Shown here piece by piece: positions 3,341 to 53,545 of a DNA stretch of 64,000 nt; within the stretch, counting starts at the first letter, position 1; every line of letters starts with the position of its first letter. Source of the DNA: Elusimicrobia bacterium CG_4_9_14_3_um_filter_62_55. GTDB lineage: Bacteria; Elusimicrobiota; Elusimicrobia; UBA1565. A program made the translations under genes and the position numbers. The stretch is taken from contig PFUL01000054.1 of assembly GCA_002790095.1 (NCBI GenBank), forward strand, positions 9,510 through 73,509. The letters are read 5' to 3'. Below the pieces are notes generated by a model that saw only the letters and a list, made by a program, of their open reading frames with translations, made no database searches and was not told where the DNA came from.

Positions 3341-3393
3341 AAAGTGCCGAATTCGGCCGTAGCTTGACTCTGGCCTCGACACGAAATCGGGTC

Positions 3394-3421
3394 TTGATAA
3401 TTTCCGGAAGTACGTTATAAT
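3394..3421 (+). promoter_or_regulatory. sigma70-like promoter: TTGATA (3394-3399), 16-nt spacer, TATAAT (3416-3421)
   Basis: Near-consensus hexamers in the only AT-rich stretch of this region, about 30 nt upstream of the XRE gene ATG at 3454. A short TTATA/TATAA inverted repeat overlaps the -10. Confidence 0.45.
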
Positions 3422-3453
3422 ATTCGTATAAACATAATTACATTACTATAGAA

Positions 3454-4233
3454 ATGAAAGTCACCGCCCTTAAATCCTACCGCTCGGCCATCGGCCGGGA
3501 ACTCCGCGAACTCCGCGAAGAGCGCCGCTGGAGCCAGTCCGAATTGGCGAAGCGCCTCGGCCTGTCTCAAGGATGGCTCTCCCGCATCGAAAGGGGAGAC
3601 GCCTCCCTGAGCGCCGAACAGCTCCTTTACGCCACGCGCATCTTCAACGCCAGCGTAGACCGCTTCCTGCCCAAACGGCGCGGCCCTTCCGGAGACCAGA
3701 TCCAAAACGCGCTGGCGAGACTCGGCGCGGCGCATCTCCTGGAGCTAGAGGGAGCCTTTCCCACGGAACGGCTCAGCGACGCGCTCAACGTAATCCAAGA
3801 GGTCCTCACCACGCCCGACAATCCCCGCCACGTCTCCGCCCTAACGCCCGTGCTGGTCGAGCAGGCCGCAGAACTCCGGCTGCCGGCCCTTCGCAAGCGC
3901 CTCGCCGAGGCCGGCCTCGAACGCCGCCTCGGCTGGCTCGTCGACAACACGCGCTGGGTCCTCGTACGAGAACTTGAGGAGACCAAGTCGATCCCGCTGC
4001 GGACCCTCAACAAATACCGCCGCGCGCTGAGCCGACTATCGCACGCCGGTTTCGAGCCGTTGGCGCGGACCGAGCCATCCGAGGACATATTCGACTCAAC
4101 GATCGTCAGCGACGCAAGCATCGATGAGGCCCGGAAGGAGCGCTCCGAGATCTCAGCGCGGTGGGGCATCCTGTCTTTTTTGCAGCCGCAGGACTTCCAA
4201 TCCGCGCTGAGGCAGGTCTATGCCCCCGATTGA
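3454..4233 (+). CDS. XRE-family HTH DNA-binding protein with ~190-aa C-terminal domain; putative antitoxin/regulator of downstream nucleotidyltransferase
   Basis: N-terminus GRELRELREERRWSQSELAKRLGLSQGWLSRIERGD is a classic HTH_XRE (HTH_3) helix-turn-helix. 14-nt overlap with the next gene. The C-terminal domain is not recognised (RRALSRLSH could be an Rx6H HEPN-like motif, speculative). Confidence 0.7.
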   Translation: MKVTALKSYRSAIGRELRELREERRWSQSELAKRLGLSQGWLSRIERGDASLSAEQLLYATRIFNASVDRFLPKRRGPSGDQIQNALARLGAAHLLELEGAFPTERLSDALNVIQEVLTTPDNPRHVSALTPVLVEQAAELRLPALRKRLAEAGLERRLGWLVDNTRWVLVRELEETKSIPLRTLNKYRRALSRLSHAGFEPLARTEPSEDIFDSTIVSDASIDEARKERSEISARWGILSFLQPQDFQSALRQVYAPD

Positions 4234-4816
4234 GCGGTTGCTGAAGGAACTCGACGGCATCTGGCCGCTCAAGCGGCCTCAGAAAATCCGTCTCGACATA
4301 ATCGGCTCCGGCGCCTTGATGCTCCAAAGCGACTACACCCGCTCGACCAAGGACGGCGACGTCTTCGAGCTGAAACCGCTTGAAGAGCTCGTACGCAAGA
4401 CTCTCCTAGATCTCGCCGGAAAGAAGTCCCGACTCCAAGCCAAACTGCATATGTACCTGGACATCGTGCCCAACGGCCTGCCGTTGCTCCCGGCGCGGCC
4501 CCTGTTCCACCGGATCGCTCTTTCCAAAAACCTCGAGCACTTCGAACTGCGCGCTCTCGACCCGGTCGACGTCGCGGTCAGCAAACTCCCCCGCTTCAAC
4601 GCCAACGATCGCACCGACGTGCAGTCCATGATCGAGCGCGGCCTGATCTCACATCAACGTTTGATCGCGCGGTTCCGCGACGCGGTCGACCGTTTCGCCA
4701 TGGATGCGCGGGCCGAACTTCTACCGAAGTACATCGAGCGCCTGCACTCCATAGAGCACGCGTTCTTTAATCTCCCGCCGACCCCTTTTGACTTGCCCGA
4801 CTGGATGGATCGATGA
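4220..4816 (+). CDS. minimal nucleotidyltransferase, AbiEii/MenT-like (DUF1814/DUF6036-like) putative toxin
   Basis: IIGSGALMLQSDYTRSTKDGDVF matches the minimal-NTase signature hG[GS]...[DE]h[DE]h and the GGxAL...R.S.D.D pattern of AbiEii/MenT toxins. GAGG Shine-Dalgarno 5 nt upstream. Translationally coupled to the HTH gene. Confidence 0.6.
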   Translation: MPPIERLLKELDGIWPLKRPQKIRLDIIGSGALMLQSDYTRSTKDGDVFELKPLEELVRKTLLDLAGKKSRLQAKLHMYLDIVPNGLPLLPARPLFHRIALSKNLEHFELRALDPVDVAVSKLPRFNANDRTDVQSMIERGLISHQRLIARFRDAVDRFAMDARAELLPKYIERLHSIEHAFFNLPPTPFDLPDWMDR

Positions 4817-4923: not shown

Positions 4924-4995
4924 GCCGCGGTAGCTCAGTGGTAGAGCACTGGTCTGAAAAACCAGGTGTCGGTAGTTCGATCCTACCCCGCGGCA
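4924..4995 (+). tRNA. tRNA-Phe (anticodon GAA)
   Basis: Cloverleaf readable: acceptor GCCGCGG/CCGCGGC, D-arm GCTC/GAGC with AGTGGTA loop, anticodon stem CTGGT/ACCAG with loop CTGAAAA (GAA at 4956-4958), T-arm GGTAG-TTCGATC-CTACC, discriminator A. CCA is not encoded (followed by CCC). Confidence 0.9.
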
Positions 4996-5010
4996 CCCCT
5001 TTCCAAAAGA

Positions 5011-5038: not shown

Positions 5039-5845
5039 TCAGTACTCGTCGACGCGCTTGAGCCAGCCGCGCAAAAAACGCGCGACCGAGGGGTCATCAC
5101 CGGCCCGCCGCTCCAGCACGAACTTCGCCGAGGATTTGAAGCGGTCCAAACCGTCGAGTCCGCCGTAGCGCTCCATCTCGAGAAGCACCTGAAACAATCC
5201 CCAACCGAAGCCGTTGGGCGTGCGCTCGGTCGCCTTGAGCCCCTCGCCTTTAAAGCCCACATAGTCGAGCATCGCCACCACGCCGCGTTCCGAGGCGGCG
5301 ACCGCGTCGATGCTGCGCTGAATCACTCCGGCGCGAACCGGATCGTGGCGGACGAGGGAATCGAGACTCGCGCTCAAGCGGCGGATCTGGAAATCCGCCT
5401 GCGCCACGAGGACGTCGCGACGGGAGAAAAACGCGCGCAGTTCGGCGAGTTCGGGGGATGCATCCCGGGAGAGAAACATCCGCCGCGTGCACCACGGCGC
5501 GGGGCGGATGCGCCCGGTGCCGTCGGCGCCGAGCGCCGTCGGCAATTCCGACGGGTCGACGCGCCGCTCGGAAATCATCCATTCGATCAACGCCGGGAGA
5601 CTCTCTTCGAAACCCGGCTTCGTTCCGCCGCAGAGTTCGTAGTCCGGATACCACAGGTAGTGGGCCGCCCCGATCGACGCGAAGGTTTCCCCGTCGTTCC
5701 ATTGAGCCAGACCGCGGACGGTTCCCCCTCCTTCGCGCTGCCAGATCAACTTGATGATTTCGAGTTTGCGCGTCTCGGGGAAGTCCGGAATCGGACCTGA
5801 GAGGGCACCGGCCGCCGAGAGCGCCAACGGGAGCAGGGCGCGCAT
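5039..5845 (-). CDS. secreted hypothetical protein (signal peptide)
   Basis: 268-aa ORF starting MRALLPLALSAAGALSG (signal-peptide-like). No recognisable catalytic motif. Confidence 0.55.
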   Translation of the reverse strand: MRALLPLALSAAGALSGPIPDFPETRKLEIIKLIWQREGGGTVRGLAQWNDGETFASIGAAHYLWYPDYELCGGTKPGFEESLPALIEWMISERRVDPSELPTALGADGTGRIRPAPWCTRRMFLSRDASPELAELRAFFSRRDVLVAQADFQIRRLSASLDSLVRHDPVRAGVIQRSIDAVAASERGVVAMLDYVGFKGEGLKATERTPNGFGWGLFQVLLEMERYGGLDGLDRFKSSAKFVLERRAGDDPSVARFLRGWLKRVDEY

Positions 5846-52207: not shown

Positions 52208-53119
52208 CTATTCGCCCAAGACGTCGGCCATGCGCCGCGCGGCGTACGCCGGCATCCACAACAGATGGAGAATCGCGGTGTAGTGACCGCCCGGAACCCA
52301 ACGCTGGACCGAGTCCGGAAAGGCCTCTTTCAGCTTGCGGCCGTTCTCCGGCGGGATCACCCGATCGGAACTCGCGTTGATGAGCATGACGGACTTTCCG
52401 GCGTTCTTCTCGCGATACTCCAGCGGGTCGAGTCCCTCCCAAGCCGTCTTCAGATCCGCGCGCGATATTCCCGCCATTTTCATGAACGCGGCCGTCATCG
52501 TGCTGCGGTGCACCAAATCAATCATGTCGGCGCCCCCCAGAAGGAAGACCGCGCCGGACGGACGGGGATCCACCGAGTAGAGCGACGACCCCACGAGCGC
52601 ACCGAGACTGATCCCGAACACGCCCACCCGGGAACCGTCGAGGAGTTCCGAGCCTTCCAAAACATCCAGGGCGCGCCCGGCATCGGCCCGGGACTGCCGG
52701 AAGTTTTTCCCGAGACGCGACGCGCTGCGCGCAAGGAATACGGCCCCGCTCGGGATCGTAGGATTCGGACGCCGATGGAATTGGTAGGGCATCTCCAGCC
52801 ACAACACCGCCAGTCCGCGCCGCAAAAAGGCGTGAACGAAGCGCATTTCGATCCAGGCGTTGGGCGCCGCCATAATGGGGAGGATGAGCACCGCGGGGGG
52901 ACGCGCCCGGGAGGCGACCCGGTCTCGCGGCACATAGAGATGCCCCCAAACCGTGTCGTTCACCGGAAAGGGACTCCGCTCAGGGGACGGGAACCGAATT
53001 TCGTAGAGGCGATACCGATAGGTTTCCGCTTCGAAACGGATCTCCGTCTCAAAGCCCCTCGCGGCCGACGCCGCGAGGGAAATTAAGAGAATCGCCGGGA
53101 AAAATCGAGGATTTGACAC
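52208..53119 (-). CDS. alpha/beta-hydrolase fold protein (dienelactone hydrolase/peptidase S9-like)
   Basis: Signal peptide. Nucleophile elbow GISLGA (GxSxG). Downstream Asp/His candidates. Confidence 0.7.
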   Translation of the reverse strand: MSNPRFFPAILLISLAASAARGFETEIRFEAETYRYRLYEIRFPSPERSPFPVNDTVWGHLYVPRDRVASRARPPAVLILPIMAAPNAWIEMRFVHAFLRRGLAVLWLEMPYQFHRRPNPTIPSGAVFLARSASRLGKNFRQSRADAGRALDVLEGSELLDGSRVGVFGISLGALVGSSLYSVDPRPSGAVFLLGGADMIDLVHRSTMTAAFMKMAGISRADLKTAWEGLDPLEYREKNAGKSVMLINASSDRVIPPENGRKLKEAFPDSVQRWVPGGHYTAILHLLWMPAYAARRMADVLGE

Positions 53120-53230: not shown

Positions 53231-53545
53231 ATGGCACATGTGATTAATGAGAAGTGTCTGGGTGAAGTCTACGCGGCCTGCGTCGACGTCTGCCCGGTGG
53301 ACTGCATTCATCCCGGCAAGTACAAAGATGCGAACTTCATGGTCATCGACCCCGAAGTCTGCATCGACTGCGGCGTCTGCCTCCCGGAGTGTCCGATCGG
53401 AGCGATCGTCGGCTCCACCGACGAGGATGAGACCTACGCGGGGATCAACGCCGAGCTCGCGCCGACCTTCAAGGACAACGAAAAGGTCACCCCGCGGCCG
53501 CCGAACGATCCGCCGAAAAAGCCCGGGAACACGCTCGTAAAGTAA
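53231..53545 (+). CDS. fdxA: 7Fe ferredoxin ([3Fe-4S][4Fe-4S], FdxA type)
   Basis: CxxAxxxCP and CxxCxxCxxxCP motifs (CLGEVYAACVDVCPVDC, CIDCGVCLPECP). GGAGGGGGAAG Shine-Dalgarno. AT-richer upstream region. Confidence 0.9.
   Translation: MAHVINEKCLGEVYAACVDVCPVDCIHPGKYKDANFMVIDPEVCIDCGVCLPECPIGAIVGSTDEDETYAGINAELAPTFKDNEKVTPRPPNDPPKKPGNTLVK

Follow-up and report, generated by a model that had tools for sequence, protein, structure and literature searches.

A DUF6036 nucleotidyltransferase paired with an XRE-type protein: a putative toxin-antitoxin cassette in Elusimicrobiota and other bacteria

What does a two-gene cassette do in which an XRE-type helix-turn-helix (HTH) protein is followed by a compact nucleotidyltransferase (NTase)? 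The question is raised by positions 3394-4816 of a 64,000-nt stretch of DNA (the window) from Elusimicrobia bacterium CG_4_9_14_3_um_filter_62_55 (contig PFUL01000054.1). NTase toxins of the AbiE and MenAT kind extend tRNA 3' ends and block translation, and they were recently shown to be silenced by antitoxin-induced self-phosphorylation. The initial annotation, made from the sequence of the window, read the cassette as a variant type IV/VII toxin-antitoxin or abortive-infection (Abi) module with a non-standard antitoxin. In our analysis, an R-S-T-x-D-x-D pattern in the NTase, strict pairing of the two genes and the XRE partner spoke for this view; the sequence profile, which is that of DUF6036 and not of AbiEii, and a weak fold resemblance did not. 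The cassette most likely represents an uncharacterised toxin-antitoxin family and not a housekeeping operon. On balance, we hold it for probable that it is a mobile, self-contained and autoregulated cassette of the toxin-antitoxin type, in which the NTase would be the toxin and its partner the neutraliser. In silico, the predicted traits in support are those of an autonomous, autoregulated and coupled bicistron, with its own strong promoter and the behaviour of a mobile cassette.

Two overlapping genes found together

Both open reading frames (ORFs) were confirmed on the forward strand with their 14-nt overlap (Table 1), which implies translational coupling. The gene for tRNA-Phe(GAA) is located at 4924-4997, 107 nt past the stop codon of the NTase gene, close to the distance of about 100 nt given initially. 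Related loci were represented by a set of 82, of which 80 derived from GTDB species genomes and two from metagenomic contigs. The C-terminal domain of the partner was encoded directly upstream of the NTase and on the same strand in 82/82 loci, which is far beyond chance; homologs thus do occur as the pair that the initial annotation presupposed. The overlap was exactly 14 nt in 53/82 loci, and nearly all others overlapped by 1-23 nt. Altogether, 134 cassette loci were detected among 185,579 species genomes, with a patchy spread over Elusimicrobiota, Myxococcota, Acidobacteriota and Aminicenantes. A database protein of the Elusimicrobia metagenome-assembled genome (MAG) CG1_02_63_36 matched the NTase of the window at 100% identity.

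Three MAGs carried two copies each (L037/L038, L009/L043 and L044/L064) that were 40-49% identical in both proteins. Such diverged double copies are consistent with insulated paralogous systems; some of their start-codon calls are uncertain, and their operators are not cleanly comparable. A conserved third component was considered and rejected, as no flanking gene was recurrent and the commonest flanking ORF family appeared in 5/83 loci at most. In one locus (L055, 5239-6585) partner and NTase were read as a single 448-aa ORF. This ORF was dismissed as Rosetta-stone evidence, since the other frame still shows the usual end of the partner together with the 14-nt ATGnnnCCnATTGA overlap, and it is probably the product of a 1-nt assembly error or a frameshift.

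Table 1 Sequence features of the cassette, in window positions
Feature	Position	Strand	Details
Sigma-70-type promoter	3394..3421	+	-35 TTGATA (3394-3399), 16-nt spacer, -10 TATAAT (3416-3421); 11/12 match
Operator 1, ATTCGTATAAACAT	3422..3435	+	degenerate 14-bp palindrome AT-nnn-TATA-nnn-AT; directly after -10 box; family operator 1 position
Operator 2, ATTACTATAGAAAT	3442..3455	+	14-bp palindrome of the same form with 6/7 pairs, spaced 20 nt from the first; ends in the first two bases (AT) of the start codon
Partner gene (putative antitoxin and autorepressor)	3454..4233	+	259 aa; without Shine-Dalgarno; AlphaFold pLDDT 94.3
XRE-type HTH of partner, aa 13-69	3490..3660	+	recognition helix S38-Q-G-W-L-S-R44; Pfam HTH_31 E 3.9e-14; HTH_3
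All-alpha C-terminal domain of partner, aa 76-259	3679..4230	+	proposed toxin-neutralising
Most conserved partner segment, Q84-N-A-L-A-R89-L-G-A-x-H94-L-x-E97	3703..3744	+	helix end and ordered loop; (near-)invariant columns in 50 sequences
Gene overlap (14 nt), ATGCCCCCGATTGA	4220..4233	+	family pattern ATGnnnCCnATTGA
DUF6036 nucleotidyltransferase gene (putative toxin)	4220..4816	+	198 aa
NTase motif I, G29-S30 (hG[GS])	4304..4309	+	beta1-alpha2 turn; G29 invariant and followed by S, C or A
NTase motif II, R41-S42-T43-K44-D45-G46-D47	4340..4360	+	family-specific Arg, putative phospho-acceptor Thr, two catalytic Asp; low-confidence alpha2-beta2 loop
NTase D81, third carboxylate	4460..4462	+	beta3 (Y-L-D-I), strand 80-83 in model; kept in phage DUF6036
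NTase C-terminal motifs, D117-V...S-K122-L-x-R125-F (motif III-like) and N-D130-x-x-D133 (motif IV-like DxxD)	4568..4618	+	kept in distant phage DUF6036

The nucleotidyltransferase and its active site

The strings of a minimal NTase core, hG[GS] and DxD, which were noticed initially, are present in the peptides I-G-S-G-A-L-M-L (aa 28-35) and R-S-T-K-D-G-D (aa 41-47). The protein is assigned by Pfam to DUF6036 (PF19502; 43.4 bits vs cut-off 23.6, E 4e-11) and not to a housekeeping NTase family. The same match was above the cut-off in 24/24 aligned relatives (best E 2.9e-13), and PF19502 stands in the precomputed annotation of every full-length database homolog. A search in a library of 8 million papers returned none on DUF6036, a family with no described function or partner. 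In the alignment of 24 homologs, from which all residue conservation of the NTase is given, G29, A32, L33, R41, T43, K44, D45, D47, Y79, D117, K122, D130, D133 and R151 were invariant, and D81 and R125 nearly so. The Asp pair, whose conservation was to be checked according to the initial annotation, is thus kept throughout together with G29, with variation at position 30 (Table 1).

In the AlphaFold model of the NTase (pLDDT 87.9), D45 is placed right before beta2, D47 inside beta2 and D81 on beta3, while K122, R125, D130 and D133 are found within the C-terminal helical lobe; the model would therefore position the key residues as a DNA polymerase beta (Pol-beta) type NTase requires. T43 belongs to the alpha2-beta2 loop, where the confidence of the model is lowest (pLDDT 62, residues 41-50). 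Taken together, the sequence points to a compact Pol-beta-fold enzyme of DUF6036 with an intact and invariant catalytic centre. Furthermore, the distant DUF6036 protein of Dolichospermum phage Dfl-JY45 keeps A-G-G, R-V-T-A-D-V-D, Y-F-D and D...SK..R...NDR.D, and the active-site signature is therefore family-wide.

It should be added that Dfl-JY45 is a jumbo cyanophage, in which the DUF6036 protein (PP438435.1 166991-167877, L083 1971-2857; Pfam E 5e-12) is likewise 198 aa long, and its gene is overlapped by 4 nt by a preceding 97-aa ORF of no recognised family. Because of this ORF, DUF6036 proteins may pair with other, small partners as well, and phages may carry such pairs.

The likeness to AbiEii/MenT toxins is centred on motif II. 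Motifs I and II of DUF1814 were described as hG[G/S]-x15-DhD, the spacer norm of Pol-beta NTases being 9-13 residues, and AbiEii R63 in motif II, four residues ahead of the first Asp, as DUF1814-specific and absent from other Pol-beta NTases (Dy et al. 2014). In the NTase of the window, the spacer from I28-G29-S30 to D45-G46-D47 is 14 residues, i.e. above 13 and one below the 15 of AbiEii. The invariant R41 has the same spacing (R41-x3-D45) as R63-x3-D67 of AbiEii, an Arg being found also in the phage DUF6036, and the whole R41-S42-T43-x-D45-x-D47 follows the pattern of AbiEii R63-S64-T65-x-D67-x-D69. In AbiEii, the phospho-acceptor was mapped to T65, which is phosphorylated in the presence of AbiEi; its equivalents are T39 of the MenT1 set T39/D41/D43/K137/D152 and S78 of MenT3, all of them two residues ahead of the first catalytic Asp. 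In apo MenT and AbiEii the phospho-acceptors sit on a flexible loop, which the loop position of T43 in our model parallels. The residue equivalences with MenT1 rest on the motif pattern and the position in secondary structure. In Foldseek, the six top matches of the model were 5uvd, MenT1 and four MenT3 entries, with the AbiEi antitoxin as the seventh. Judged by its sequence, the NTase is a compact, distant relative of AbiEii/MenT that shares their active-site design, with no family membership by profile.

These data also bear on a non-toxic enzyme operon, in which the NTase would modify a small molecule, either an antibiotic of the aminoglycoside or lincosamide type or a metabolite, and the XRE protein would be a ligand-sensing repressor with an inducer-binding C-terminal domain. 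We consider such an operon distinctly unlikely, in view of the Arg and phospho-acceptor Thr of motif II, the former DUF1814-specific, and of the Foldseek leaders, which beyond 5uvd were MenT1, MenT3 and the AbiEi antitoxin. Neither the NTase nor its 24 relatives matched any resistance-NTase family in Pfam, the profiles of the antibiotic nucleotidyltransferases ANT(2'') and Lnu did not claim it, and ANT(2'') was absent among the 50 Foldseek matches listed. Moreover, pairing in 82/82 loci, overlapping genes, diverged copies in the same genome and unrelated neighbourhoods are typical traits of toxin-antitoxin systems, and the partner domain occurred with no other enzyme among 120 listed proteins.

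The partner protein and its dual operator

The first protein agrees with its initial description as a 259-aa XRE-type HTH protein, the C-terminal ~190 aa of which had no match in Pfam and no relative among PDB sequences. It was also correctly set apart from the canonical AbiEi/COG5340 antitoxin, having an XRE-type and not a winged HTH, and an all-alpha C-terminal domain. Its HTH scored below the cut-offs of the HipB, PezA and MqsA family models. Besides the most conserved segment (Table 1), R125, R158 and W161 were invariant in the 50 sequences. A profile of the C-terminal domain alone (about 185 aa) recovered 303 proteins, and all 120 listed of these had the same HTH-plus-domain architecture; a single architecture among the listed matches argues for a domain dedicated to pairing with the NTase.

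The HEPN-like motif RRALSRLSH, suggested initially for this domain, did not hold, since its His is not kept in the 50 homologs and the domain alignment matched no HEPN profile. A reversed polarity of the cassette has nevertheless to be weighed. In HEPN-MNT systems (type VII), the minimal nucleotidyltransferase (MNT) is the antitoxin. By analogy, the C-terminal domain of the partner could be the effector, e.g. an RNase acting via R89-x4-H94, and the NTase a nucleotidylating antitoxin. In favour of this, the best-conserved stretch of the partner contains a near-invariant R89 and H94 in Rx4H spacing; the domain also looks enzyme-like in having many charged residues that do not vary (R125, R158), and in both cases a minimal Pol-beta NTase meets an all-alpha protein with a conserved Arg...His pair. 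However, no HEPN domain was recognised in the partner, the MNT families PF01909 and PF18765 had no match in 24 NTases, and the gene order is opposite, the NTase being downstream and not upstream in 82/82 loci. The partner, furthermore, has an HTH. We therefore regard this arrangement as highly improbable.

The upstream region points to a further role of the partner as a regulator. The promoter was initially considered the best in the window and placed in the only AT-rich stretch locally: it does score 11/12 and lies within the 120 nt of lowest GC content in the window (37.5% GC, 3361-3480), but the top score is shared with a site at 53113. Upstream regions were AT-rich in 71/71 related loci (45% vs 64% GC), and promoter scores of at least 9/12 were found in 51/71 loci vs 6/355 control windows taken at random from the same loci. 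In the layout common to many loci, the -35 box, 17 nt and the -10 box are followed by two 14-bp palindromes, set 6 nt apart, and then by the ATG. In 60/71 loci, the final 60 nt contained at least one palindrome with six or more of its seven pairs (vs 12.5% of shuffles), and a pair of palindromes at 20-nt spacing was found in 15/71 (vs 0.14% of shuffles), the second abutting the ATG in 14 of these 15. The combined two-site pattern occurred once in 64 kb, where 0.00 was expected.

The half-sites go together with the recognition helix of the HTH: ATCG...CGAT with SQ[N/S]RLSE, ATCGC...GCGAT with SQNYLSE, ATCC/ATCT...GAT with SQNYLSL, ATTTC...GAAAT with TQGHLSQ and, in the window, ATTAC...GAAAT with SQGWLSR. 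Such covariation is inflated by kinship of the loci, and several independent classes still agree, from which it can be argued that the HTH reads the operator sites and that the first protein would be the repressor of its own operon. The covariation offers, moreover, a ready-made specificity code for this XRE repressor family. The predicted leader RNA of the window was unstructured (-0.2 kcal/mol, z 0.74) and Rfam found only the tRNA; an RNA-level role of the palindromes was rejected for the window on these grounds, and the unstructured leader implies that they act at the DNA level. Autoregulation via dual inverted repeats is known for AbiEi and MenA4 (PMC7319586).

Two side observations concern translation and the competing promoter. 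Operator 2 reaches into the ATG of the partner gene (window 3436-3456), which for this reason lacks a Shine-Dalgarno sequence, and ahead of the NTase start codon there is GAGGCAGG, still within the partner coding sequence (window 4205-4222); for these reasons the two products may differ in translation efficiency. The site at 53113 (TTGACA-17-TAGAAT), also in an AT-rich patch and unrelated to the cassette, precedes a 104-aa 4Fe-4S ferredoxin-like ORF (53231-53545) with CxxCxxCxxxCP motifs and a clear Shine-Dalgarno sequence.

Proposed mechanism, genomic setting and known systems

In the mechanism we propose, the NTase would be a toxin adding nucleotides to RNA 3' ends, by analogy most likely to tRNA acceptor ends, and this addition would block translation. 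The C-terminal domain of the partner would neutralise it by occluding the active site and/or repositioning the T43 loop. A repositioned loop might lead to self-phosphorylation of the NTase in a type VII-like manner, as in MenA1-MenT1, MenA3-MenT3 and AbiEi-AbiEii. A loop of AbiEi enters the active site of AbiEii, and by this analogy the element most likely to reach into that of the NTase would be the near-invariant loop R89-L-G-A-x-H94-L-x-E97. If the partner were lost or inactivated, the operon would be derepressed and the NTase set free at the same time.

A number of observations weigh against this reading. No sequence-profile link to AbiEii/DUF1814 was detected: PF08843 did not match the NTase even at E<=10 and gave one sub-threshold match (E 0.091) among the 24 relatives, no NCBIfam or PADLOC model (AbiE models included) matched it, and phmmer and the family HMM (hidden Markov model) retrieved nothing from PDB sequences, MenT and AbiEii chains included. 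The resemblance of its fold to MenT is weak (TM score 0.42, Foldseek E 0.08, none at E<=0.001). As regards the C-terminal motifs, V-S-K122-L-x-R125-F fits motif III (KLxAaxxR) in K-L-x-x-aromatic and has the terminal Arg placed differently, N-D130-x-x-D133 has Asn in place of the Lys/Arg of motif IV (+DxxD), and 8 residues separate K122 from DxxD vs 15-22 in MenT1, AbiEii and MenT3. The AbiEii/MenT (DUF1814) arrangement claimed initially is thus retained for the motif II pattern with its Arg and Thr, absent at the level of profile and weak at that of fold. It is solely gene linkage that points to contact between partner and NTase, while toxicity, neutralisation and substrate are proposed from sequence and analogy. 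Finally, no homolog was found in PLSDB plasmids, and a scan for defence-island context, which had been recommended, revealed none in the flanks of the window and no recurrent defence gene in those of 83 loci.

The cassette of the window is flanked by genes for a FIST-cyclase, a metallophosphoesterase, chorismate mutase/prephenate dehydrogenase and OmpA, i.e. by metabolic, signalling and envelope functions. Downstream of tRNA-Phe there is a 268-aa ORF (5039-5845, reverse strand) whose N-terminus resembles a signal peptide and for which Pfam gave no match at E<=0.001. The neighbourhood of tRNA-Phe, initially noted with the module, appears incidental: a tRNA or tmRNA (transfer-messenger RNA) was found within about 6 kb in a minority of 60 loci, with varying identity and orientation. 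A functional or integrative link to tRNA-Phe was rejected on this account, and also because the module is found on the 5' side of this tRNA and not at its 3' integration end. In L002 (7107-7471) and L036 (6746-7102) a tmRNA gene, with the tag ANDNAYALAA in both, is located 150-500 nt downstream, its 3' end facing the cassette; upstream in L002 there are an IS110-family transposase and a RhuM-family gene (Pfam Virulence_RhuM). Adjoining tmRNA genes, together with the transposase and RhuM gene of L002, suggest that in some genomes the cassette resides within an island integrated at ssrA.

This setting is relevant to the question whether the mechanism proposed above would serve phage defence by abortive infection, with the toxin released on infection, and not an addiction or stress module. 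In favour of defence, the nearest systems that have been characterised (AbiE) act by abortive infection, a DUF6036 gene is present in a jumbo cyanophage, and the homolog beside the IS110 transposase and RhuM-family gene near tmRNA has an island-like context. Against these stand the ordinary neighbours in the window, the flanks of 83 loci, where no defence gene was recurrent, and PADLOC, which had no match for the NTase; a defensive role is in our opinion unlikely.

Returning to a toxin-antitoxin function as such, the sequence suggests that the catalytic loop R-S-T-x-D-x-D is present also in the smaller family DUF6036, paired with a differently built antitoxin. To our knowledge, type VII auto-phosphorylation has so far been shown only for DUF1814 toxins. 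It is conceivable, albeit doubtful, that antitoxin-induced auto-phosphorylation extends to DUF6036, where it would be triggered by an all-alpha domain of ~185 aa via the R-L-G-A-x-H-L-x-E loop, that the partner also represses through a dual operator over transcription start and start codon, and that the cassette founds a new toxin-antitoxin family, mainly of uncultured Elusimicrobiota, Myxococcota and Acidobacteriota. If so, this would assign a function to DUF6036 and define a new toxin-neutralising domain, and it could be tested whether induced auto-phosphorylation is general to the active-site design or tied to the antitoxin fold. The present analysis defines a subfamily of DUF6036 locked to a specific XRE partner.

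Among known systems, MenA1-MenT1 of M. tuberculosis (Rv0078B/Rv0078A) differs in that the NTases share only 13-14% identity (TM score 0.42), and MenA1, a peptide of 68 aa, has no DNA-binding domain, in contrast to the 259-aa HTH partner of our cassette. With type II systems of the XRE-HTH kind (HipBA, HigBA, PezAT, RES-Xre) it would share an autorepressor gene in the first position, palindromes in its own promoter and an overlapping toxin gene, a layout predicted here from sequence; the toxin, here a Pol-beta NTase, is of another type, and the 185-aa partner domain is unrelated. AbiEi-AbiEii of Streptococcus agalactiae (COG5340 and DUF1814/COG2253), originally classed as type IV and now proposed as type VII, differs in the antitoxin, which combines a winged HTH with an NTase-like C-terminal domain and, as a structure, aligns to our NTase model and not to the partner; AbiEii, in turn, belongs to PF08843, whereas the putative toxin described here has 198 aa, falls in DUF6036 and matches motifs III/IV partly. 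Both systems are bicistrons with the antitoxin, in our cassette a putative one and predicted to bind DNA, first and an NTase second, with an extended spacer between motifs I and II and with Lys and DxxD motifs in a C-terminal helical lobe. The putative antitoxin would, moreover, resemble AbiEi in having two domains, one DNA-binding and a larger one for neutralisation, and in its paired inverted-repeat operators.

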